Shown: positions 17,301-51,634 of the stretch, piece after piece
Layout of the letters: every line of letters starts with the position of its first letter
Numbering within the stretch: the stretch's first letter is position 1
Source: an uncultured Chloroflexia bacterium
GTDB taxonomy: Bacteria; Chloroflexota; Chloroflexia; QHBQ01; JADMIH01
Direction: 5' to 3'
DNA: 64,000 nt
Assembly (NCBI GenBank): GCA_963797095.1
Contig: CAWCNY010000003.1
Location: 928,001 to 992,000 of the forward strand
Notes under the pieces: model-generated
The model's input: only the letters and a program-made list of their open reading frames with translations
What the model was told of the DNA's origin: nothing
The model's database searches: none
Made by a program: the position numbers and the translations under genes

Positions 17301-18731
17301 ATGTTCCGACGAAAATCGCTTGTAGCCCCCACGCTCCTGACGATCCTTGCACTGTCATTGAGCGCTTGCGGTGGCGACACCCCCACGGCCACCCCGGTAG
17401 CCGCGCCTCCCACGGCCACCACGGCTCCGGTCGAGCAGCCCACCGCCACCACGGCTCCGGTCGAGCAGCCCACCGCCACCACGGCGATGGCAGAGCCTAC
17501 CGCCACTATGGCGATGGCGGAACCTACTGCTACCACTGCCTCCTCTTCATCCGGCGATAACCTCTCAGGCACGGTCAATTATTGGACGGCTTACAACACC
17601 GTTTCGCCTGAGATGGATACGCTCAACAAGACGATCATCCCGGCTTTTGAGAAGCTGCACCCGAATGTCACGGTCAATGCGCAGGCGCTACCCTATGACG
17701 ACCTGCGCCAGAAGATCCTGACAAGTATAGCGGGTGGCGAGGCCCCCGACCTGGTGCGCGCCGATATCATCTGGGTGCCCGAGTTCGCCGAACTGGGCGC
17801 GCTGGCGGCTCTCGACACCGAAATGCCCAACTTCTCCGATCTGAAGGATGCCGTATACCCTGGCCCCTTGCAGACCAATTACTATAAAGGGCACTACTAT
17901 GGCCTGCCTCTTGATACCAACACCCGCGTGCTGATCTATAACGAGGACGTTTTCAATGAGGCGGGGATCACCGACGCACCCAAGACCTTCGATGACTTCA
18001 AGGCCGATTGCGACAAGATCAAGGCGCTCGGAAAGGCCGACACTTACTGCTACGCCGAGGGCGGCACGGGTGCGTGGAGCGTGCTCCCATGGATCTGGAG
18101 CGCAGGCGGAGATATAACCGACCCTGAGTTTACGAAGGCCACAGGTTACCTGAACAGCGCGGCTACCGTATCGGCTGTCACTATGCTCAACGATATGCTG
18201 AAGGACGGCACCCTTTCGCCCGGTATCCTGGGCAACGGCATAGCCACCAGCGACGCGATCGGTAAGGGGCAGGCCGGGACGATCCTGGACGGTCCCTGGA
18301 TGCCTCCTATCTTCCAGCAGCAGTATCCCGACCTGAAGTACAAGATGGTGCCGGTGCCCACCGGACCGGGCGGGAGCGTGTCGGTGGTAGGCGGAGAGGA
18401 TATCGTGATGTTGGAGAGCAGCCAGAACAAGGAAGCGGCAGAGGCGTTCATGACCTATGTGTTGACCGAGGACCCGCAGATCGCCCTGGGCAAAGTGGGC
18501 CAGATGCCCGTGCTCAAGAGCCTGAACGGCAATAGCGAGCTACCCGATTACTACTCGGTGTTCCAGACGCAGTTGCTGACGGCCAAGCCGCGCACCCCAA
18601 ACCCCAACTGGCAGAAGATCGACGATGCGATCAACGGCGCGGTGCTCTCCGTGCTCAGGGGTGAGAAAGAGCCTCAGGCCGCCATGGATGAAGCCGCCGC
18701 GACGGTGGACGGCTTGCTGGCGAGCAAGTAG
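17301..18731 (+). CDS. Carbohydrate ABC transporter substrate-binding lipoprotein
   Basis: Lipobox LSAC, PTAT-rich linker, GEAPDL, YGLP, DGPW, SVVGGE. Confidence 0.92.
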   Translation: MFRRKSLVAPTLLTILALSLSACGGDTPTATPVAAPPTATTAPVEQPTATTAPVEQPTATTAMAEPTATMAMAEPTATTASSSSGDNLSGTVNYWTAYNTVSPEMDTLNKTIIPAFEKLHPNVTVNAQALPYDDLRQKILTSIAGGEAPDLVRADIIWVPEFAELGALAALDTEMPNFSDLKDAVYPGPLQTNYYKGHYYGLPLDTNTRVLIYNEDVFNEAGITDAPKTFDDFKADCDKIKALGKADTYCYAEGGTGAWSVLPWIWSAGGDITDPEFTKATGYLNSAATVSAVTMLNDMLKDGTLSPGILGNGIATSDAIGKGQAGTILDGPWMPPIFQQQYPDLKYKMVPVPTGPGGSVSVVGGEDIVMLESSQNKEAAEAFMTYVLTEDPQIALGKVGQMPVLKSLNGNSELPDYYSVFQTQLLTAKPRTPNPNWQKIDDAINGAVLSVLRGEKEPQAAMDEAAATVDGLLASK

Positions 18732-18738
18732 GTTTGAG

Positions 18739-18822
18739 GACGAGTGACGAGTGACGAGTGACGAGTGACGAGTGACGAGTGACGAGTGACGAGTGACGAG
18801 TGACGAGTGACGAGTGACGAGT
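18739..18822. repeat. Perfect heptamer tandem repeat (GACGAGT)12
   Basis: 84 bp counted directly, starting 7 nt after the SBP stop codon. Confidence 0.97.
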
Positions 18823-18880
18823 GAATGTGGGTGGATGGCTGCGAGTAGAATGTAATCAGTCGTTTGCTTTCTAATCCTAA

Positions 18881-18908
18881 CGTCGTTCGTCGTTCGTCCT
18901 TCGTCCCA
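18881..18908. repeat. Heptamer array (CGTCSTT)-like x4, partly complementary to the GACGAGT array
   Basis: CGTCGTT CGTCGTT CGTCCTT CGTCCCA. Confidence 0.8.
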
Positions 18909-19892: not shown

Positions 19893-19930
19893 GGAGGTTC
19901 CAAGTTCCTAGTAGTCGGTAGTCGGTAGTT
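19893..19930. repeat. Composite heptamer element, partial copy
   Basis: GGAGGTT CCAAGTT CCT AGTAGTC GGTAGTC GGTAGTT; uses the same words as the elements at 45210 and 49158. Confidence 0.8.
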
Positions 19931-19958
19931 GGGGACAATTAGAAAGTAGTGGGAATAG

Positions 19959-23665: not shown

Positions 23666-24973
23666 TCAGAGGGGACCAACGCCGTCCACTGCCTGGCAGA
23701 CATACATGGGCGCGACAAGCCCCGTCTCGGCCATATAGCGCTCCACTACCTCGCGGTTGAATGTGCTGACTGCTTCCGTTTTCACAAGATGCACGGTCGA
23801 GCCGCCGAAACCCCCGCCCGTCATGCGCGTGCCGAGCACGCCGGGCATACGCCGTGCCAGCTCGATCAGGCGGTCTATGGGAGGGACGGTGATCTGGTAA
23901 TCGTCTCGCATGCTCACATGCGACCTGTACATAAGCTGGCCGAACCGGTCCAGGTCGCCGGCCTGCAAAGCCTCTACGCTTAACAATACTCTTTCGTTTT
24001 CTGTAACGACATGGCGCACTCGCCTGCGAACGATTTCGGGCAATGCCGCGCTGTGTCGTTCAAAATCCTCGATAGTGATGTCGCGGAGCGAATTGATATT
24101 GCGACCCGGCATGAGTGCCTGGAGCAGCCTCACTCCTTCCAGGCACTCGCGCTTGCGAGTGTTGTACTCGCTATCTACAAGACCGCGCTGCACACCCGAT
24201 TCCACCACTACCACCGATACTCCGTGCTGCTCCGCAGGGAGCACTCCGCGCTGCTCCGCAGGGAGCACTCCGCGCTGCTCCGCAGGGAGCACTCCGTGCT
24301 GCTCCGCAGGGAGCACTCCGTGCTGCTCCGCAGGGAGCACTCCGTGCTGCTCAAGGCCGAGCGGTACCACTTGGTAGGTGAGATCGCGGCAGTCTATACA
24401 CAAAGCCGCGTCACGCTGCCCGAGTGCTGAAATGAACTGGTCCATGATACCCGTCTGCACGCCTACAAAGCGGTTTTCGGCCTCCTGGCCCCATAGAGCA
24501 AGCTGAACTTTATCGATCTGCTCTCCGGATAGCGAGGCAAAAGTATAACCAACAGCAATTTCCAGGGCGGCCGAGGAAGACAGGCCCGCACCCCTGGGCA
24601 CATCGCCTGCTATAGCGATATCCGCGCCTACGAGCGGCTGCCCGTGGTCGCGCAAGGCCGCGGCTACTCCGCGCACGTAGTTACTCCACCCGGCGTCCTG
24701 GGAAGGGGTTATGTCGTCAACGTCAAAAGTGGAAAGCTGGCTGTAATCTTGCGAGTAAAGACAAATCAGGCGAGAGCCGGAGGGTGCTGCCAGCGTGATC
24801 ACCTGCCGGTCGATAGCTATTGGCAGCACGAAGCCGCCGTTGTAATCTGTGTGCTCGCCTATCAGGTTGACCCTGCCCGGCGCACGCACCGCTAAAGTAG
24901 GCTCCCGCCCGAAGGTTTGTTTGAATTGAGCGTAAAGTTCCTCGATCATTGGCAACTCATTTCGTGGCTGCAT
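23666..24973 (-). CDS. galK: Galactokinase with a 40-aa in-frame repeat insertion
   Basis: APGRVNLIGEHTDYNGG, PRGAGLSSSAA, GIMDQ, RMTGGGFGG. Start may be 24949. Confidence 0.95.
   Translation of the reverse strand: MQPRNELPMIEELYAQFKQTFGREPTLAVRAPGRVNLIGEHTDYNGGFVLPIAIDRQVITLAAPSGSRLICLYSQDYSQLSTFDVDDITPSQDAGWSNYVRGVAAALRDHGQPLVGADIAIAGDVPRGAGLSSSAALEIAVGYTFASLSGEQIDKVQLALWGQEAENRFVGVQTGIMDQFISALGQRDAALCIDCRDLTYQVVPLGLEQHGVLPAEQHGVLPAEQHGVLPAEQRGVLPAEQRGVLPAEQHGVSVVVVESGVQRGLVDSEYNTRKRECLEGVRLLQALMPGRNINSLRDITIEDFERHSAALPEIVRRRVRHVVTENERVLLSVEALQAGDLDRFGQLMYRSHVSMRDDYQITVPPIDRLIELARRMPGVLGTRMTGGGFGGSTVHLVKTEAVSTFNREVVERYMAETGLVAPMYVCQAVDGVGPL
24219..24352. repeat. 24-bp tandem repeat x5.6 inside galK, encoding (EQ[H/R]GVLPA)n
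   Basis: Unit ACTCCG(T/C)GCTGCTCCGCAGGGAGC read directly from the sequence. Confidence 0.96.
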
Positions 24974-30768: not shown

Positions 30769-30843
30769 GCACGTAGTGCTCCCTGCGCAAGCGGCACGTA
30801 GTGCTCCCTGCGCAAGCGGCACGTAGTGCTCCCTGCGCAAGCA
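30769..30843. repeat. 25-bp tandem repeat x3, GCACGTAGTGCTCCCTGCGCAAGC(G/A)
   Basis: Three head-to-tail copies with no spacers; related to the galK insert and to the copy at 32225. Confidence 0.95.
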
Positions 30844-36949: not shown

Positions 36950-37879
36950 CTAAAGGCGGGGGCTTCTGCAGGCGACTTGCACCGCCTGTTGGCTAGTTCC
37001 TAGCCAAAGATTGAGGATGTTTATGGCAGCATTATGGTCTGTATCAAGAGAACAGCCACACTCGCAGGAGTGCCAACGCTCGGACAACTCTTTCTTCTTG
37101 ATAGTGCCACAGGAGCTACACACTTGGCTGGTGTAACGAGGGTCAACAAGCACAACGTTCCTCCCGGCACTTTCAGCCTTGAAGGTGACGAATTGTACGC
37201 ACTGACTCCAACCAGCATCCGATATGGACAAGGCAAGGCTATGATTGCGAACCATGCTACGGGGTTACAACTGCTCAAAGACAATAGTGCCGTACTCATT
37301 CATCAGGCGGCGAGACTGCTTATGCAGGAAGTCCGCTCGCTGGTTGTGGATACGTCTGTGTATTTGAGCAACTGCCTTTTTCGCCTTGTTCCTACGGTGC
37401 CGCCACCCTTACGACGGGAAAGCGTCTGTTGAGCCGTGGCGAGCTTGTGCAGGGATTTACGCAAGCACCGTGGATCCTCAATTCGCTGTCCGTCAGAGAG
37501 GGTTGCGAACGTGGCAAGTCCGAGGTCTATGCCAACCGCCTTGTCCGAGTAGGGCAGGGTAACCTCTACAACTTCAACAGAGAAGCAAACGTACCAGTGC
37601 CCACCTTCTCGCTTGATAGAAACCATCTTGACCCTACCATGCATAGCCCGGTGCATCCTGACCTTGACGGTTCCTATCTTGGACAGTCCTATCTTGGACA
37701 GAGTGAGCCTGTCGTTTTGGAGCGACCAACCCAACTGAGGGAAGGTGAACGAGTCGTACCAGCCAGCGCCTTTGAAGCGTGGATAGCCCGGCGTTTCCCC
37801 CGACTTCACCATACGAAAGAAGACGCTCACTCTGCTTACAAGTAGGGTACGACCGGCACTTGATCGTGCGTCTAGACAT
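36950..37879 (-). pseudogene. tnpB: tnpB pseudogene (RNA-guided endonuclease)
   Basis: Fragments MSRRTIKCRSYPT, PGYPRFK..AVGIDLG, IVFE, SISDAGW..TSQVCSSCG..CECG..DHNAAINI. Lesions: internal deletion near 37820, 15-bp duplication 37672-37701, frameshift near 37400, TAA at 37265-37267. Confidence 0.9.
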
Positions 37880-38267
37880 GCTTTTGGTTTTCTATGTACT
37901 GCTTTATTACGGCGAGTGGTGCGCCCCCGACCGTGCTTACAAAGTAGGCGTTGGTCCAAAGCGAGGGCAATCGTTTCTTCAACTGCGGAAACTCTTTCCG
38001 AAGCAAGTATGAGGAACGCCTCTTACACAACTTTATCAGGCGGTGTATGCCGAATTGTGGGTCACACTCAACAAGCAGGTGAATATGGTCGGGCATTACC
38101 TGTAGCTCAAGTATCTCGGACTCTCGTTCCTCACATACTTGCCGGAGGATGTCTTTCAGCCGTTCGGCTACGTCATCCACCAGCACCTTACGGCGGTATT
38201 TCGGGCACCACACAACGTGGTACTTGCAGGAGTACACCAGGTTGTTGTTGGACTTGAAACCCTTCAC
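37872..38267 (-). CDS. tnpA: IS200-family Y1 (HUH) transposase
   Basis: YHVVWCPKYRR, DHIHLL (HUH), LWTNAYFVST, YIENQ. Probable GTG start at 38267; the ORF is open to 38285. Confidence 0.94.
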   Translation of the reverse strand: MKGFKSNNNLVYSCKYHVVWCPKYRRKVLVDDVAERLKDILRQVCEERESEILELQVMPDHIHLLVECDPQFGIHRLIKLCKRRSSYLLRKEFPQLKKRLPSLWTNAYFVSTVGGAPLAVIKQYIENQKHV

Positions 38268-42877: not shown

Positions 42878-44372
42878 GATGGCCGATCCTTCCTTGCATC
42901 AATGCGAGCAGCCGAGCGAAAGCGGAGTCCCAGGCTGAATTGGTGTGGGGTTGATAGGTCGTTTGGGCGAAGGAAGCAGCGACGATGCGGCGACCTGCTT
43001 CGATGCCGGGGAGGTGGCCCGTCGCCACTGCCTGAACCAGCACGTTACCCAGCGCGGTGGCCTCTATCGGCCCTGCCACCACAGGCCTGCCACATGCGCC
43101 GGCGGTCCACCGGCAGAGTAGAGCGTTCTGGCTGCCACCGCCAACCACGAGTATTGTATCGAGTGGGTGACCTACAAGATCTTCGAGGTTTGTGAGTACC
43201 CAGCGGTATTTGAGCGCGAGGCTTTCGAGGCAGCAGCGCACTACCTCTCCGGGGGTTGTGGGTGCGGGTTGGTTTGTGAGGGCGCAGTATGCCTGGATGG
43301 CGGATTGCATATCGGGTGGGTTTAGGAAGTCGGGCGCGTCGGGGTTCACGATGCTCGCCAGGGGTGGGGTTTGTTCGGCCAGCCCTATTAATTCGGGCCA
43401 GGTGAAGTTGAGACCCTGGTTTTGCCAGCCGCGCCGGCATTCCTGTAGCAGCCAAAGGCCACCAACGTTTTTGAGGAAGCGGATGGTGTTGGCAACACCG
43501 CCCTCGTTGGTGAAGTTGAGAGCGCAGGCTTGCGCGCTCAGTATGGGCTGCGGCGTTTCGATGCCGACCAGGCTCCAGGTGCCGCTGCTTATGTAGGCGC
43601 TCCGCACGTCAAGGCCGGGGATGGCGGCGACCGCACTGGCTGTGTCGTGGGTGGCGATGGCTATTACAGGGACGTTTCCGCGCAAGCCCAGTTCCTCGCG
43701 GAGTGAGGGCAGCATGTCGCCTAGGATGGTGCCTGGGGCGACGATTGGAGGCAGGATGCCGGTGGGCACGCCTAGCCCGGCCAGTAGACCGGTGGCCCAA
43801 CGCTTCTCGCGCGCGTCGAAGAACTGGGTGGTGGTGGCGTTGGTGTACTCGGCGACAGCGCGGCCTGTGAGCCGGTAGTGGAACAGGTCGGGGATCATCA
43901 GGAGGGTACGAGCCGCAGCGAGGTGGGGGTCATGAGTGTGGGCCATGCTCGCCAGTTGATACAGGGTGTTGATTGGCAGACGCTGGATGCCGGTCTGCGC
44001 GTAGAGTTGTTCCTGGGAGATTACAGCATCAACTAGCTCGGGTATGCCTTCTGTGCGGCTGTCGCGGTAATGGTAGGGATAGCCCAGGAGGTGGCCTTGC
44101 GCGTCGAGCAGGGCGAAATCTACCGCCCAGGAGTCGATGCCGATCCCGGCGAGCGGCTCGTCGTACTGAGTGGCGTACCTGGCGATGCCCGCTTTGATCT
44201 CCCGCCAAAGAGCATCCACATCCCAATGGAGGTGCCCATCTATCTCGACGGGTCCATTAGGGAAGCGGCGTAGCTCCTCCATGTGGAAGCGCCGCCCATC
44301 GAGGCGGCAGGCTATCACGCGTCCGCTGGACGCGCCGAGGTCTATGGCTAAGAAGGTGGCCGAATCGGTCAT
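42870..44372 (-). CDS. rhaB: Rhamnulokinase
   Basis: AIDLGASSGR, HYRDSRT, NTLYQL, HDTASA, SSGTWSL, NEGG, EATALGN; lies in the rha operon. Confidence 0.93.
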   Translation of the reverse strand: MTDSATFLAIDLGASSGRVIACRLDGRRFHMEELRRFPNGPVEIDGHLHWDVDALWREIKAGIARYATQYDEPLAGIGIDSWAVDFALLDAQGHLLGYPYHYRDSRTEGIPELVDAVISQEQLYAQTGIQRLPINTLYQLASMAHTHDPHLAAARTLLMIPDLFHYRLTGRAVAEYTNATTTQFFDAREKRWATGLLAGLGVPTGILPPIVAPGTILGDMLPSLREELGLRGNVPVIAIATHDTASAVAAIPGLDVRSAYISSGTWSLVGIETPQPILSAQACALNFTNEGGVANTIRFLKNVGGLWLLQECRRGWQNQGLNFTWPELIGLAEQTPPLASIVNPDAPDFLNPPDMQSAIQAYCALTNQPAPTTPGEVVRCCLESLALKYRWVLTNLEDLVGHPLDTILVVGGGSQNALLCRWTAGACGRPVVAGPIEATALGNVLVQAVATGHLPGIEAGRRIVAASFAQTTYQPHTNSAWDSAFARLLALMQGRIGHHA

Positions 44373-45193
44373 ATCAGGGTGGTGCGCACGCCGAAGGCTT
44401 TCACTACTTCGTGCAACTCTTCATCCGTGAGGCCCTCGCCCTTGCCGCCGTTAATCAGGTCCATGTATTCGTAGCGGGCGGCGGTTTCCGCGTACTCGAT
44501 GCGGTCGGCGGCGCGGGTGACCGAGATATCGGAGCGGGCCATGACGCCGTGCTTGCTCCATAGGACGACGCTGTGGTGGCGAAGGGCTTCGACGTTAGCC
44601 TGCATCAGAGCGGGCGAGCCGGGAAGCAGGTGGGGCAGCACGCCGACGCCCTGCGGAAGTTGTACGATAGTTTCCGGCTCCCAGCGCATGAGGCGGCGGT
44701 TCATTATAGCAGTATCCCGGTATTCCGAGATGTGGCTGAGATAGACGAGGTTGGGGGGTTGGGCGTGGATAAGGGCGTGGAAGTTGGTGCCTGTGGTCTC
44801 TACCTGATCGCTGTGGATGGCGAGGTGAGAGTTGAATTCGCTGGTGACGCGCTCGAAGAGGCGGCGCGGCGCGGTGTAGAGCTGGCCCGTAAGCCCATCT
44901 TCGCTTATGACGATAGCGCCCAGGTTGGCGGCAGGATCGGTGCGGATGTCGCGCAGGCGGCGGCCCGAGCCTGTGACGATCACCACTTTTCCGGCGAGCG
45001 CAGGGGCGGGTTGAGGCAAGTCGATCGGCTGGCTGAGCGGAAAGCGGCGGCGCACCTCGATGGGCCAACCTATGTAGATAGAGATATTGCCCGCCGCGCC
45101 CTCGCTGGCTTCGATGCCGCTGAGACGCTGGCCCGCCTCGCCAATGGTGGCGATCAATTCATCAAGGTCCGGATAGGGTTCCGGTAGGGACAT
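44369..45193 (-). CDS. Class II aldolase, RhaD-like
   Basis: EGAAGNIS, TGSG, TSEFNSH, IHAQP, LPGS, WSKHG. Confidence 0.78.
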   Translation of the reverse strand: MSLPEPYPDLDELIATIGEAGQRLSGIEASEGAAGNISIYIGWPIEVRRRFPLSQPIDLPQPAPALAGKVVIVTGSGRRLRDIRTDPAANLGAIVISEDGLTGQLYTAPRRLFERVTSEFNSHLAIHSDQVETTGTNFHALIHAQPPNLVYLSHISEYRDTAIMNRRLMRWEPETIVQLPQGVGVLPHLLPGSPALMQANVEALRHHSVVLWSKHGVMARSDISVTRAADRIEYAETAARYEYMDLINGGKGEGLTDEELHEVVKAFGVRTTLI

Positions 45194-45209: not shown

Positions 45210-45293
45210 GGTAGTCGGTAGTCGGAGGTTCCAAGTTTCTGGTTCCAAGTTTCTGGTTCTTGAATTCTGACTACCGACTACCGGCTATCGGTT
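45210..45293. repeat. Composite 7-nt-phased element (12 heptamers, inverted arms)
   Basis: GGTAGTC x2, GGAGGTT, (CCAAGTT TCTGGTT) x2, CTTGAAT, TCTGACT, ACCGACT, ACCGGCT, ATCGGTT. Confidence 0.92.
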
Positions 45294-47496
45294 ACCTAAG
45301 AAACGCTTCGTGCAGACCGCCGTCTACTGAGATTATCTGGCCTGTGGTCTGGCGTAGGCGGTTGGTTAGTAGGAGGAAGATGGCCTCGGCCTGGTCGGCG
45401 GGTGTGATCGGTTGCTTGAGCAGGGTACGATTGGCGTAGAATTGCGAAAGCTTCTCTGTGAGGACTTCGGTCGATTCGACTTCGCTGTAGTCGATGCCGT
45501 ACTTGGCGAGGGAGGCTATCACGCGGTCGCGGGGGAACATGGCGCTGCCCTGTACGACGGTGGCGGGAGCCACGCCATTTACCCTCACCAAGGGGGCTAG
45601 CTCTATCGCCAGCTCCCGGACGAGGTGGTTGGCTGCTGCCTTGCTGGTATCATACGCAAGGCTGCCTTTCTTGGCTACCACGGCGTTTACCGAGGTGGTC
45701 AGCACGAGGTTGGCGGGGAGGCCCTGCGCTTTGAGGACGTTCGATGCCTCGTCGGCCACCAAGTAGAGTCCGGTGATGTTGATATCGAAAGTGCGCGCCC
45801 ACATCTCGTCGGGGATGCGGCCCGACGTGTCGGGCGACACGAAGATACCGGCGGTTACGGCCACCGCGTCGAGGCCACCGTAGGCCAGGGTTGTCTGTTC
45901 AAGCATGGCGCGGAGGCTTTCGCGGCGGGTTATGTCGGCGTGGAGGCCGATGGCGGGGCCGCAGTTGGAGATACCGCTGCCCGCCACGCCGACACCGAGG
46001 CCGTACTTGTCGGTGATGGCTTTGGCGGCTTCGTGCGCGCCTTCGGTATCGCGGTCCACGCACACTATATGCGCGCCTTCCTTCGCCAGCCTGAGGGCCA
46101 CCTCGCGCCCGATGCCGCTGGCCGCGCCGATCACGGCTATCACCTGCCTTGCAAGCTCCTTCTCGGCAGGCATGCGCTGTAGCTTGGCCTCCTCCAAGAG
46201 CCAGTATTCGATGTCGAAGGCTTCCTGTAGGGGGAGGGCCGTGTACTCGTCCACCGCCTCGGCCCCGCGCATCACTTCGACCGCGCAGTTGTAGAACTCG
46301 GCGGTCACCCGCGATTCGCTCTTGTCTTTGCCCCAGGCGATCATGCCCAGGCCGGGGATCAAGATCACGGTAGGGTTGGGGTCGCGCATGGCAGGCGAGT
46401 TTGAGTGCTTGTGCTTGTTGTAGTATCCGGCGTAGTCCTTCCGGTATTGCTCCAATCCCGCCGCCAGTTTGTTCTTGAGAGCGTCCGTGTCCTCGGTCTG
46501 GGGGTTCCACTCGACGTAGAGCGGCTTGATCTTGGTGCGCAGGAAGTGGTCGGGGCAGGAGGTGCCAAGCTCGGCGAGGCGAGGCGCATCGTGGCTGTTC
46601 ACGAAGCGCAGGATGGCGGGGTCCTCCTGCACGGTGCCGATGAAGCGCCTGTACTGGCTCACCTGCCCGCGCAGCCAGGGGAGGACCTCGGCAAATATCC
46701 GGTGGCGCTTCTCCTCGTCCAGCGATGCGTATTTCCGGCCGCCGAAGGTATTTTCGCCGGGGTCGCGCTCTTCGATGTAGCGGCCCGCGCGCTCGATCAG
46801 GTCAAGGGTTAGCTCGTAGCACTCCTTGTCGTCGTTGGCCCAATTGATCAAGCCGTGCCCGCCCAGGATCACGCCCTTGGCGGGGGGGTGGTCGCGCACG
46901 ATCTGCTCAAGCTTGAGGCCCAGGTCGAAGCCGGGACGCTGCCACTCGGTCCAGATAACTTCGTCGCCGTAGATCTCTCGCGTAAGCTTTTGGGAGTTGC
47001 GGGCCGCCGCGATGGCGATCACGGCGTTGGGGTGCATGTGATCGACGTGGCGGTAGGGGATGAAGCCGTGGAGCGGGGTATCTATAGAGGAGGGGCGGGG
47101 ATTGAGGTTGAAGGTGCAGTGGCTGTACAGGCCGACAATGGCGTCCTCGATGGGCGTTTTGGGGCCGCGATGGGGCGCATGGTGGTAGTGGCTCTGGAGG
47201 GCAAGGAGCTTATCCATGTAGAGAGAGGAGAAGTTCTCGCGCCTGGAGGTGCGAAGGTCGCCGCCTGAGCCTTTGACCCACAGCACATCGACCGCTTCGC
47301 CCGTGAGGGGGTCTTTCTCGATGATTTTGGAGGAGGTGTTGCCCCCGCCCGTGTTAGTGATGCGGCCATCCGCCCCCAGCAGGTTCGACCTGTAGACAAG
47401 GCGCTCGACCGGATCGAGCTTGCTCGCATATTCGTCGTCCCAGCCGTAGTTTACGTGCCTGAACGACGATGCTTCTGTTGATGTTGCTGATGACAT
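45292..47496 (-). CDS. rhaEW: Bifunctional rhamnulose-1-phosphate aldolase / L-lactaldehyde dehydrogenase
   Basis: GGGNTSSK, KGSGGDL, SIDTPLH, DHMHP, SCPDHFLRTK, IEYWLLEEAKL, followed by an SDR domain (GAASGIG, YDTSK). Confidence 0.92.
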   Translation of the reverse strand: MSSATSTEASSFRHVNYGWDDEYASKLDPVERLVYRSNLLGADGRITNTGGGNTSSKIIEKDPLTGEAVDVLWVKGSGGDLRTSRRENFSSLYMDKLLALQSHYHHAPHRGPKTPIEDAIVGLYSHCTFNLNPRPSSIDTPLHGFIPYRHVDHMHPNAVIAIAAARNSQKLTREIYGDEVIWTEWQRPGFDLGLKLEQIVRDHPPAKGVILGGHGLINWANDDKECYELTLDLIERAGRYIEERDPGENTFGGRKYASLDEEKRHRIFAEVLPWLRGQVSQYRRFIGTVQEDPAILRFVNSHDAPRLAELGTSCPDHFLRTKIKPLYVEWNPQTEDTDALKNKLAAGLEQYRKDYAGYYNKHKHSNSPAMRDPNPTVILIPGLGMIAWGKDKSESRVTAEFYNCAVEVMRGAEAVDEYTALPLQEAFDIEYWLLEEAKLQRMPAEKELARQVIAVIGAASGIGREVALRLAKEGAHIVCVDRDTEGAHEAAKAITDKYGLGVGVAGSGISNCGPAIGLHADITRRESLRAMLEQTTLAYGGLDAVAVTAGIFVSPDTSGRIPDEMWARTFDINITGLYLVADEASNVLKAQGLPANLVLTTSVNAVVAKKGSLAYDTSKAAANHLVRELAIELAPLVRVNGVAPATVVQGSAMFPRDRVIASLAKYGIDYSEVESTEVLTEKLSQFYANRTLLKQPITPADQAEAIFLLLTNRLRQTTGQIISVDGGLHEAFLR

Positions 47497-47528
47497 CCCC
47501 TTAGCTCCTTCTCTTGCATTCTCTTGCG

Positions 47529-48809
47529 TTACGCTCGCTTTGATGTGACTTCACTTTCGTACGTCTCTATATCGTTCATAAACGCCATGCCAACGGGCAC
47601 TTCCTCTTGCAGGCAGAAATAGTCCCACACGGCCTGCCAGGGCATACCCTTCATCTCTTCGAGGGCTGCGAGGCGGGCGGTGTAGTTGCCTTCGATTTCA
47701 AACCGGCGCAACCGCTCGGTAGGCTCAAGCAAGGCGACCAGGGCCGCACGCAGCACATTGCGCCCCCCCACCACCCAGGCGGCGATGCGGTTGATACTGG
47801 CGTCGAAGAAGTCGAGACCGATATGCACGCGGTCAAGATGCTTGCCAACGATCACCTCGCGCACGATTGCCTGTGTTTCGTCCGACAGGATGACCACGTG
47901 GTCGCTGTCCCAGCGCACGCCCCGGCTGATGTGGAGCACCACGCCAGGCACGTACATGAGCACCGAGGAGAGTTTGTCGGCCACCGATTCGGTGGGGTGA
48001 AAATGGCCGCTGTCGAGGCACAGCAGGATGCCCTTGCTGACGGCGTATCCGAAGTAGAATTCGTGGGAGCCTACCACGTAGCTCTCCGAGCCAAGCCCGA
48101 ACAGCTTGCTTTCGACCGAGTCGAGGTTGTACTTCGGATCAATTGGCACAGCAAGGCTAGCATCCAACAATTCTTTGAGAAGTTGGCGAGGCTTGGCCCG
48201 ATCTACGGGCGTATCCTTCAAGCCGTCGGGTATCCAGATGTTGGTGACACAGGTTGTGCCGAGTTGTTCGCCAAAATATGCCCCTATATGGCGGCAGGCG
48301 ATGCAGTGCTCGATCCAGAACTGCCGGATGTGGGGGTCGTAGCTTGAGAGGGTGAGGCCGCTATCTGCCAGGGGGTGCGAGAATATGGTGGGGTTGAAAT
48401 CGAGGCCGTGGCCGTTCTTCCTGGCCCAATCCACCCAGCCGGAGAAGTGCTCGGGCTGTAGCTCGTTCCGCTCCACTTTCTTGCCTCCTGTCTCCGCGTA
48501 GGAGGCGTGCAAATTCAGGCGGTGGTTGCCCGGTATAAGGGTGTAGACGCGGTCAAGGTCGCTCCGCAGTTCGTCGGGGGTGCGGGCCTTGCCGGGGTAG
48601 TTGCCTGTGGCGGCAAGCCCGCCTCCGAGGGTGGCGTCGGGCGACTCGAAGCCGCCTACATCGTCGCCTTGCCAGCAGTGTATGCTGAGCGATACCTGCC
48701 TGAGGGCGTTCAGGGCGGCATCCGTATCGACGCCGAGGGCGGCGTAGCGCTCGCGGGCGAGGGAATAGGCGTCCTGTAGCTGTCTGGTTGTGGGGGATGT
48801 GCCGAACAT
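47529..48809 (-). CDS. rhaA: L-rhamnose isomerase
   Basis: [62 protein letters not shown]. Confidence 0.97.
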
Positions 48810-48822
48810 CGTGATTCCTTTG

Positions 48823-49146
48823 TCAGTCGAGGTGAAAGATCTCGGTTAGCTCTACGAACATTTCGTCCGGGCGGGCGTTGTTGGGCGACTCGAAGAATGG
48901 GGCCATGAGCTCCTGCCAGCGGGTGTTTACCTCTTGTTCGAGCATGAGGGCCTGCGCCACCTGAAGGCTTTCCGGCGTCTCGAAGTAGCCGAACAACAGC
49001 CCATCGTCACGCATGAAGATGGAGTAGTTGTGCCAACCTGCCTCACGCAGGGCCGCCAGCATCTCAGGCCACACGTGCTCGTGGTGGCGCTTGTATTCCT
49101 CCAGCCGTTCCTGTTTTACTTTGAGGATAAAGGCTATGCGTTTCAT
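48823..49146 (-). CDS. rhaM: L-rhamnose mutarotase
   Basis: EYKRHH..VWPEM, NYSIF, LFGY, RWQ..M, EIFHLD. Start placed at MKRIAF; the longer ORF simply runs through the upstream repeat. Confidence 0.92.
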
Positions 49147-49157
49147 GGTGATGTTTT

Positions 49158-49255
49158 GGTAGTCGGTAGTCGGTAGTCGGTAGTCGGAGGTTCCAAGTTC
49201 CTGGTTCCAAGTTCTTGAATTCTGACTACTGACCACCGACTACCGACTACTGATA
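49158..49255. repeat. Composite 7-nt-phased element (14 heptamers, inverted arms)
   Basis: GGTAGTC x4, GGAGGTT, CCAAGTT, CCTGGTT, CCAAGTT, CTTGAAT, TCTGACT, ACTGACC, ACCGACT x2, ACTGATA. Confidence 0.92.
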
Positions 49256-49256
49256 G

Positions 49257-50297
49257 CTAGAAGTCGAAATTATCAATGTTGGTTGAGTCGAATACGGTGG
49301 GCTTGCCCAGCAGGACTGTGCCGTCCGATTCGATTGTATAGTCACCGAGTTTGCCGGCGGTGAACTTATCGCCGGGGTTGCCCTTGATCTTACCGGTGGC
49401 GATGGCATCGAGGGTGTAGATCGAGAGATAGCCGAGGTCGCCGGGGTTCCAGAGGGCGAAGGCCGGGGCCGCGCCGCTCTTGACGTAGGCGCGCATCTGG
49501 TTGGGAGTGCCAAGCCCGGTCACGATCACCTGGCCGATCTTGTTGCCGTCGGTAACGGCCTTGGCAGCCGCCGCAATACCGACGGTAGTGGGCGAGATGA
49601 TACCTTTGAGGTCAGGATAGGTGGTCATCAGGCCCTGGGCCTCGGTGTAGCTCTTCTCGTCCTGGTCGTCACCGTAGACGGTCGCCACCAGTTCCAGACC
49701 TGAGTATTCGGGCTTGGTCAATTCGTCCTTCATGAAGCCGATCCACTCGTTCTGGTTGGGGGCGGTAGAGGTGGCGCTAAGGATGGCGATCTTACCCTGG
49801 CCGTTGAGCAACTTGGACATAAGCTGGATCTGGCCCCTGCCTATGTCCTCGGATTTGGCCTGGTTGATGTGAACCGTGCGGCCACCTGCTGCGATTGCCG
49901 AGTCCCAGCTAACCACAGGAATCCCGGCGTCGATAGCCTGCTTGCCAACGGGCACCAGCGCGTCGGAGTCGTCAGCCGAGATCGCCAGCCCGCTCACGTT
50001 CTGCGAGATGAGGGAGTTGATAAGCTGGATCTGCTGGGTGGCATCCGCCGTGGATGGACCCTGGTAGGTAACTGTCACGCCAAGCTCCCCGGCGGCTTCC
50101 TGCGCGCCTTTGTTGGCTGTATCGAAGTAGGGGTTGCCCAGGTTCTTGGGCACCAGTACATAGGTCTTGCCGCTGCCGCTGCTCGTGCCTGTGGTGGGGG
50201 CAGCGACGGGGGTGGCTGTCGGTGAGCCGCTGTCGCAGGCGGCGAGCGCGATGCTTACGAGCATCATGAGCGCGAGAATTAGACTCTTCTTCCTCAT
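49257..50297 (-). CDS. Rhamnose ABC transporter substrate-binding lipoprotein
   Basis: Lipobox LAAC, PKNLGNPYF, LSATSTAPNQN.WI, ISPTTVGI, TGLG.P, LWNP.DLGY. ATG at 50297 after AGGAGG. Confidence 0.92.
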   Translation of the reverse strand: MRKKSLILALMMLVSIALAACDSGSPTATPVAAPTTGTSSGSGKTYVLVPKNLGNPYFDTANKGAQEAAGELGVTVTYQGPSTADATQQIQLINSLISQNVSGLAISADDSDALVPVGKQAIDAGIPVVSWDSAIAAGGRTVHINQAKSEDIGRGQIQLMSKLLNGQGKIAILSATSTAPNQNEWIGFMKDELTKPEYSGLELVATVYGDDQDEKSYTEAQGLMTTYPDLKGIISPTTVGIAAAAKAVTDGNKIGQVIVTGLGTPNQMRAYVKSGAAPAFALWNPGDLGYLSIYTLDAIATGKIKGNPGDKFTAGKLGDYTIESDGTVLLGKPTVFDSTNIDNFDF

Positions 50298-50437
50298 CGG
50301 TATTTCCTCCTGTGGTCTGGACATCATAGATTTAGTGTCGTTAGTTTTGCCTTTATCACGCGGGTAACCGGGTAACATGTTTGCAATAGGCTTCCTCCTT
50401 ATTCCGGTGGTAAGAGTATTCAGTTAGGCACAGGTCG

Positions 50438-51519: not shown

Positions 51520-51634
51520 TACTGCGTATTTCGTACTCCGTACTGCGTATTCACTCGTCACCTGTCACCTGTCACCTGTCACCTGTCACCTGTCACCTGT
51601 CACCTGTCACCTGTCACCTGTCACCTGTCACCTG
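51520..51634. repeat. Heptamer arrays: TAYTNCG x4, TCACTCG, then perfect (TCACCTG)11
   Basis: 51558-51634 holds 11 exact copies; the last one contains the TGA stop of the upstream minus-strand permease. Confidence 0.95.

Follow-up and report, generated by a model that had tools for sequence, protein, structure and literature searches.

The minus-strand rhamnose operon of a 64,000-nucleotide (nt) stretch of DNA from an uncultured Chloroflexia bacterium (hereafter the window) contains two short elements, E1 and E2, in which arrays of 7-nt words converge into nested hairpins. We put at roughly 0.55 the probability that the two are related members of a genome-wide system resembling the short tandemly repeated repetitive (STRR) sequences, shaped by slippage and by copying between loci, and that they act as hairpins on RNA. 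According to this reading, the number of units would change by slipped-strand mispairing, independently in each arm, while the two elements would owe their common layout to copying from locus to locus, by local duplication or gene conversion and probably through recombination in the arm arrays that such loci have in common, with neither transposition nor a templating polymerase as its source. Once transcribed, the 14-20 bp stems, which have no U tract behind them, would form hairpins between cistrons by which the RNA segment upstream is protected or processed. This last step is best supported for E2, which follows a sugar-binding protein gene and would act like the stem-loops of repetitive extragenic palindromic (REP) sequences. 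E1 and E2 are, in any case, local examples of a repeat type found throughout the genome, one that is known from bacteria and still unexplained.

Layout, fold and kinship of E1 and E2

Coordinates without a prefix are positions in the window, and G000 denotes the source genome (6.02 Mb, 58% GC). E1 (45210-45293) is 84 nt long and made of 12 heptamers in register; E2 (49158-49255), its sister hairpin, is 98 nt long with 14 such heptamers, and neither element is assigned a strand. Both follow one plan, namely (GGTAGTC)n, GGAGGTT, alternating CCAAGTT and YCTGGTT, CTTGAAT, TCTGACT, and a series of GACTACC-type units. In E1, the left arm of two GGTAGTC units (45210-45223) is followed by the junction word GGAGGTT (45224-45230), by a four-unit inner array in which CCAAGTT and TCTGGTT alternate (45231-45258), by a single, degenerate reverse inner unit, CTTGAAT (45259-45265), and by a right arm of TCTGACT, ACCGACT, ACCGGCT and ATCGG (45266-45291), the final heptamer of the element being ATCGGTT. 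E2 has four GGTAGTC units (49158-49185), the same junction word (49186-49192), an inner array of CCAAGTT, CCTGGTT and CCAAGTT (49193-49213), the reverse inner unit CTTGAAT (49214-49220), and five GACTACC-type units in its right arm (TCTGACT, ACTGACC, ACCGACT twice, and ACTGATA; 49221-49255).

The outer arms, arrays of GGTAGTC and its complement, can pair with each other in both elements. The word CTTGAAT is most plausibly a single degenerate unit of the inner word in reverse orientation, which makes the layout a nested hairpin, with A-B on one side and B'-A' on the other. The sequence thus bears out the original prediction, made from the letters of the window, of two elements of 84 and 98 nt with one ordered word layout, a 7-nt register and complementary outer arms. 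It also agrees with the expectation that copy number shifts by whole heptamers: relative to E1, E2 has two more units in the left arm, one fewer in the inner array and more in the right arm, and every difference is a whole unit.

Folded as sense (minus-strand) RNA, E1 reaches -34.3 kcal/mol (z -3.9) and E2 -57.7 kcal/mol (z -9.6), values that none of 200 shuffles equals in either case; the uninterrupted helix in E2 is 20 bp long. The loops of both elements consist of 45 nt of heptamer words and enclose no PF05635 open reading frame (ORF). A search of Rfam 15 returned nothing at the gathering score, the best match being a miRNA-precursor family on E2 (22 against 63.5 bits, E 0.63). We dropped a G-quadruplex reading because G tracts are absent: such a structure takes at least four of them, and the words of E1 and E2 contain no GGG.

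Within the 6.02 Mb of G000, the 14-mer CTTGAATTCTGACT occurs twice, in E1 and E2 only, and GGAGGTTCCAAGTT occurs six times; by our own arithmetic, each is expected about 0.04 times by chance. The series (GGTAGTC)n-GGAGGTT-(CCAAGTT/CCTGGTT)m is found at six loci on four contigs, and the layout, in partial form, extends beyond the two local copies. A third copy, at C7:155974, matches E1 and E2 in its left and right junction words and in its register; the copy at C2:433052 has the same left half and a shifted right arm, and at C6:32037 the arms are direct. The rearranged partial copy noted at 19893 is indeed present on the plus strand (19893-19931), between two ABC permease genes, and reads GGAGGTT, CCAAGTT, CCT, then AGTAGTC, GGTAGTC, GGTAGTT; it has no reverse arm, and its fold is not above chance (z -1.5).

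The unbroken register is not a general rule for such elements. Among 22 GGTAGTC hairpins with exact arms, the arm-to-arm offset spreads over all seven classes (chi-square p 0.5); E1, E2 and the copy at G000:C7:155974 share a register because they are related copies. A fixed word order was also rejected, given that GGTAGTC lies outside CCAAGTT in six cases and CCAAGTT lies outside in five. Junctions between word families are stereotyped: the offset is 4 in seven of seven passages from GGTAGTC to GACGAGT, made via GGAGGAC, 3 in seven of seven from CCAAGTT-type words to GGTAGTC, and 0 in 10 of 21 from GGTAGTC to CCAAGTT-type words. Such junctions make it likely that some copying between loci has occurred. 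The number of units in one arm shows no correlation with that in the other (r = -0.08, 59 hairpins).

Heptamer arrays across the genome

Exact periodic runs of at least 18 nt number 646 at period 7 in G000, as against 61, 14, 91 and 10 at periods 6, 8, 9 and 10, respectively. When degeneracy is allowed, 615 period-7 tracts are found, and contig C3 alone has 114 such tracts, compared with none in a Markov simulation of the same contig. The vocabulary comprises 113 canonical units, the top six of which make up 342 of the 646 runs. Based on gene calls from a crude self-trained finder (4692 genes, 83% coding), 400 of the 508 composites are intergenic, 33 are partly so, and 75 overlap called genes, some of which may be gene-call artefacts. 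The intergenic composites fall into co-directional (293), divergent (76) and convergent (31) spacers, with a density about twice as high in co-directional (293 in 603 kb) as in divergent spacers (76 in 292 kb). The array words show no preference for the sense or antisense orientation with respect to transcription (33:36 and 40:25 in the two main families). An inverted partner lies within 150 nt of 147 of the 615 arrays, compared with 10 for a control with reversed units.

These inverted pairs have a polarity. GGTAGTC forms the 5' arm in 45 pairs and the 3' arm in none, and the same one-sidedness is seen for GACGAGT (27:0), AAGGACG (30:1) and GATACGT (11:0), the smaller families behaving alike. 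The reverse arrangement, 5'-(GACTACC)..(GGTAGTC)-3', is a different sequence, and the polarity is therefore not a matter of palindrome strand symmetry. The rule extends to neighbouring arrays of different families when their polarity is taken from the homologous pairs: 58 are forward-reverse (FR), 16 FF, 19 RR and none RF, with 15 pairs undefined and one apparent exception that traces to a mis-assigned family. A test free of such assignment, covering 129 neighbour pairs from 60 families, gives 0 violations; random orientations need 5-16, and none of 200 reaches 0. Most of these heterologous neighbours are unable to pair: they reach -0.37 kcal/mol per nt, where homologous pairs reach -1.25 and controls -0.27. 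Among 254 lone arrays, 181 point inward from the gene nearest to them, and sense-forward arrays begin a median of 6-11 nt past stop codons (33:2 and 42:5).

Another genome, G037, of which 391 kb were covered, has a different vocabulary and three times the array density; its neighbours show 0 violations in 38 pairs, a value that random orientation there sometimes also reaches, and its lone arrays point inward in 19 cases versus 8. Two further regularities were tried and given up. One held that the 5' arm contains more G than C, which is true of 8 of 11 families; CCAAGTT fails it, CCTGGTT and ACTGCGT are ties, and in G037 it fails again for GACGACC and ACGCCAAG. The other sought a direction of growth in the words flanking an array, whose similarity to the unit falls off within one to two units, equally on either side.

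The Avd-like PF05635 family comprises the 23S rRNA intervening-sequence protein, and its genes are commonly enclosed by such arrays. We fetched 30 PF05635 loci of the genus (L174-L203), excluded three from unpublished genomes, and found that 21 of the remaining 27 have an inverted pair of heptamer arrays around them, within 350 nt. None of the claims made here draws on G031 and G032, both unpublished. By comparison, 4 of the 4692 genes of G000 are so bracketed (within 200 nt), two of them encoding ordinary enzymes and a third having no Pfam match. Of the two PF05635 genes in G000, one (G000:C7:59247-59808, outside the window) is enclosed by (CGGTAGC)4 and (CGGCTAC)4, and the orthologous cassette of G017 has the arms (GGTAGTC)10 and (GACTACC)4, which is exactly the arm word of E1 and E2. 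Between GGTAGTC/GACTACC in G017 and GGTAGCC/GGCTACC in G000, one base of the unit has therefore changed in both arms in a compensating manner. The left arm of the G000 cassette ends in CGGAGGACGATGG; GGAGGAC follows 14 of 130 GGTAGTC arrays, and E1 and E2 have the variant GGAGGTT. The sequence GGAGGACGA stands at the inner end of only 12 arrays and at the outer end of 4.

The arm word, as (GGTAGTC)3, is present in 4 of 31 relatives, all four from one genus, and a convergent GGTAGTC pair is present in none of 400 other Chloroflexota genomes sampled. Among the matches listed, (GGTAGTC)3 occurs in at least 119 stretches from many phyla, which is compatible with each heptamer having arisen many times independently; the same matches include long arrays of 10-17 units in several Bacteroidota.

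Operon setting and hairpin role

Pfam scans identify the genes around E1 and E2 as a rhamnose operon on the minus strand, in the order ABC ATPase, two permeases, binding protein, RhaM, RhaA, aldolase-dehydrogenase fusion, class II aldolase and sugar kinase. E2 lies between the gene for the sugar-binding protein (Peripla_BP_4; 49257-50378, minus strand, E 3.5e-69) and rhaM, the L-rhamnose mutarotase gene (48823-49146, minus strand, E 3.9e-33); it begins 1 nt past the TAG stop of the former (49257-49259) and finishes 11 nt before the start of the latter (49146). Next follows the L-rhamnose isomerase gene (RhaA; 47529-48809, minus strand, E 2.3e-198). E1 separates the fusion of a class II aldolase with a short-chain dehydrogenase (45292-47496, minus strand), whose TAA stop (45292-45294) it abuts, from the downstream class II aldolase gene (44369-45193, minus strand), its other end lying 16 nt before the ATG (45193). 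Each element thus occupies an intercistronic spacer, running from the stop codon of the gene upstream until 11-16 nt short of the start that follows. A third heptamer composite of the operon, with no strand assigned, lies between the two permease genes (51520-51634) and consists of an ACTGCGT-type array followed by (GTCACCT)11; its two arrays are convergent and not complementary.

On inspection of the sequence, no U tract follows the stem on the sense strand at E1 or E2 (beyond the 3' arms, the sequence reads AAAACAUCACCAUG for E2 and CCUCCAGGAGAACCUCAUG for E1), and a terminator scan lists no site at either element. An intrinsic-terminator reading was ruled out on both counts.

Six further species of the genus have the rhamnose operon, at 71-81% identity. 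At the E2 site, the hairpins of three of them (G015, G005 and G011) are unrelated in sequence, the first kind being made of heptamers with different words, the second a pair of REP-like palindromes and the third a plain stem. The palindrome pair (L007:5497-5627, in G005) consists of two inverted copies of a self-complementary REP-like 20-mer that form a 27-bp helix, with no heptamer arrays. The longest uninterrupted helix at the site nevertheless measures 20, 18, 27 and 23 bp in G000, G015, G005 and G011, respectively, so that all four species have a long helix of 18-27 bp; among 1762 co-directional spacers of G000, helices of at least 16 bp occur in 7.6% and of at least 20 bp in 3.1%. In the same genome, a helix of at least 14 bp follows 7 of 11 binding-protein genes, against a baseline of 11.7% (binomial p 6e-5). 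Taken together, the helices in four of four species and the enrichment after binding-protein genes make a role in protecting or processing RNA plausible for E2. The E2 spacer seems to need a long hairpin, with heptamer arrays as one way to supply it. The idea that the hairpins tune the operon mRNA, raised in the original prediction, may therefore hold at E2, while the evidence from the E1 site is weak.

The window has further repeats. At 18739-18905, (GACGAGT)12 starts 8 nt past the stop of another binding-protein gene; a CGTCGTT/CGTCCTT array comes next, ahead of the permease gene, and the spacer folds with a 16-bp helix. Inside that binding-protein gene (17301-18731), tandem units of 27-30 nt, their lengths being multiples of three (17409-17536), probably encode a repetitive linker. 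Tandem repeats with GC-rich palindromic content are also found at 24219-24352 (24 nt, 5.6 copies, 98% matches) and 30769-30842 (25 nt, 3 copies, 100%).

Origin of the elements and relation to known systems

The original prediction offered two origins for the common layout, a tiny hairpin-forming mobile element and a polymerase stepping along a multi-word template, and neither is supported by the genome. For 59 hairpins, the word shared by the two flanks averages 3.17 nt, compared with 3.12 +/- 0.12 for re-paired flanks; the target duplication typical of MITEs (miniature transposable elements with inverted repeats) is thus absent. All four Y1_Tnp genes of G000 lie at least 3.9 kb from the nearest array, and none is flanked by repeats in the manner of REP-associated tyrosine transposases (RAYTs). 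The complete layout is restricted to E1 and E2, and G000 therefore has no master locus; together with the reversible word order, this speaks against the multi-word template. Nor does any full reverse transcriptase (RT) gene, from about ten RT loci in G000, adjoin an array as such a template would have it, the distance to the nearest array being 1.1 kb or more; the sole exception is a partial RT, which lies 209 nt from an array.

Two side observations concern these enzymes. The window has an IS200/IS605-type Y1 transposase gene on the minus strand (37884-38237; PF01797, E 2e-44) that is not associated with heptamer arrays, and there is a 15-nt direct repeat at 37672-37701. G000 has 24 RVT_1 matches, and at several loci (G000:C2:823155-826348, C3:569041-572231, C3:115342-118543, C1:29142-32386 and C1:493122-494942) two or three RT-like ORFs stand in tandem, none of them adjoining arrays.

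Several results weigh against our reading of slippage, copying between loci and a hairpin role on RNA. On the side of function, the helices at the E1 site measure 14, 14, 11 and 10 bp, against a baseline of 29% for helices of at least 10 bp, and heptamer arrays form only 2 of the hairpins found after the 11 binding-protein genes. Both E1 and E2 fold better as antisense, and G-U asymmetry in 44 converging chains from co-directional spacers favours neither strand (sense RNA stabler in 17, antisense in 24, p 0.35). None of 24 public sequencing runs contained the stretch, the best share of its sampled words being 0.07. On the side of origin, slippage and conversion leave three things without an explanation: the convergence of neighbouring arrays whether or not they can pair, the recurrence of the same junction words at many loci, and the bracketing of PF05635 genes by arrays.

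That bracketing brings in a serious rival, one we still think unlikely, in which a selfish PF05635 cassette resembling an intervening sequence (IVS), with inverted heptamer arrays around the gene, would have given rise to E1 and E2 as derivatives without an ORF, spread or maintained in trans much like MITEs or REPs beside their autonomous partners. It gains from the contrast between 21 of 27 PF05635 loci and 4 of 4692 genes, from the identity of the G017 cassette arms with the arm word of E1 and E2, from the kinship between the end of the G000 left arm, GGAGGAC and the variant GGAGGTT, and from the dispersal of the composite layout over six loci with stereotyped junctions. Bracketing does not in itself demonstrate mobility, however, and the 59 hairpins are free of target duplications. 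The G000 and G017 cassettes occupy the same locus and therefore appear vertically inherited rather than mobile; G000 has only two PF05635 genes for about 500 array composites, the small count of arrays with GGAGGACGA at the inner end tells against a common cassette source, and the orthologous spacers of other species contain unrelated hairpins, some of them not built of heptamers. Likewise improbable, in our estimate, is a neutral reading, in which replication slippage in permissive spacers yields the arrays as mere by-products and E1 and E2 have no function. Turnover is fast, since arrays found in one species are missing from the orthologous site in another or take a different form there; arm lengths drift independently, a sense-strand G-U bias is missing, and 450 of the 615 arrays stand without a partner nearby, whether inverted or direct. 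Heptamers are, moreover, over-represented across a wide range of bacteria (Mrazek 2007, summary in PMC4679880). Neutrality fits poorly with the long helices that persist at the E2 site in all four species, the enrichment of hairpins after binding-protein genes, the compensating change in both cassette arms, the 129 neighbour pairs free of violations where random orientation gives at least 5, and the inward pointing of 181 of 254 lone arrays.

A third rival is directional templated or reiterative synthesis, in which a polymerase or RT would step through words and extend 3' ends toward the centre of the element, for example at a break in the hairpin loop. Each array family has one polarity (45:0, 27:0 and 30:1 in the three largest counts), neighbours of different families obey it even though most cannot pair (58 FR, 0 RF), junction offsets are fixed, and PF05635 proteins are homologues of Avd, the accessory protein of diversity-generating retroelements (DGRs), according to PMC10053308. 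Of 80 (GGTAGTC)3 loci among the matches listed from other phyla, 8 have a partner that converges and none a partner that diverges, although these eight come from about three phyla, with six of them in Acidobacteriota, and are therefore not independent evidence. We nonetheless regard such synthesis as very improbable. A master locus is missing and no RT or Y1 gene adjoins the arrays; word order is reversible, unit purity has no outer-to-inner gradient, and arm lengths are uncorrelated. A forward-then-reverse pattern survives deletion, slippage and point mutation, so that founder hairpins or cassettes could have passed it on by descent, with no special enzyme involved. A broader proposal, to which we give little credence, is that a single selfish system unites the ORF-less hairpins, including E1 and E2, with the PF05635 genes that arrays bracket; in it, an Avd-like four-helix-bundle protein and a cellular polymerase or RT would lay down or maintain the arrays directionally, the 3' ends facing the centre of the element. 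If true, it would explain why unrelated words never diverge in orientation, why junction words recur and how operon spacers become filled, and elements in such spacers could later have been co-opted as RNA-processing hairpins.

In many bacteria, heptamers rank first in over-representation among long simple repeats, and they have no accepted origin or function. The locus described here is a clean test case, with two sister hairpins in one operon and, at the E2 site, a long helix that persists from species to species although its sequence does not. Any model has to satisfy three constraints: neighbouring arrays always converge, able to pair or not; lone arrays point inward from the nearest gene end and start just past stop codons; and PF05635 genes are nearly always enclosed by such array pairs. 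If these hold in other phyla, the heptamer excess becomes directly testable.

Among known systems, REP sequences and bacterial interspersed mosaic elements (BIMEs), with their RAYT transposases, are intergenic, hairpin-forming and mosaic, and fall into species-specific families; REP stem-loops stabilise upstream mRNA in operons, for example after malE in E. coli. E1 and E2 resemble them in lying after stop codons and between operon genes, including after a binding-protein gene, and differ in that their arms are tandem 7-nt arrays of variable number and that no RAYT-like gene is flanked by arrays. The foldback (FB) transposons of Drosophila also have inverted arms of short tandem repeats whose number varies, and their transposition has been demonstrated; they are eukaryotic and far larger than E1 and E2.

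The closest likeness is to the STRR-type heptamers, including those of Calothrix PCC 7601 (as cited in PMC4692102) and those in the survey of Mrazek (2007), with which the present arrays share tandem 7-nt units, a period-7 excess, a small vocabulary, hundreds of dispersed and mostly intergenic copies, a variable unit number and slippage as the proposed mechanism. They are not STRR sequences in the strict sense, which would take a cyanobacterial host and the canonical units: host phylum and unit sequences differ, and here many arrays are nested and paired as hairpins, with strict convergence. In Xanthomonas campestris and X. axonopodis, GGGAATC heptamers form 70-75 convergent pairs able to make stem-loops, mostly between aligned ORFs and near stop or start codons, with positions kept and lengths differing between related species (Rehm et al. 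2015, PMC4692102). The convergent orientation and the preference for spacers between aligned ORFs are found here as well, whereas the G tracts and G-quadruplexes of that system have no counterpart in GGTAGTC, CCAAGTT and GACGAGT, which lack GGG, and here many words combine. The (GATAGRA)n satellites of Chloroflexus aurantiacus come from the same phylum and are likewise heptamer-derived arrays scattered genome-wide, for which transposition was suggested (Subirana and Messeguer 2019, PMC6749651); they represent one heptamer family, and the text of that paper, in which 'inverted' occurs 0 times, mentions neither hairpin pairing nor orientation. The IVS of 23S rRNA, finally, consist of a long stem of inverted flanks that encloses an S23p/PF05635 ORF (PMC4990558). 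The genus likewise has PF05635 genes within inverted arrays, and E1 and E2 share the long-stem inverted flanks, but they enclose no ORF and are sited in mRNA spacers rather than in rRNA.

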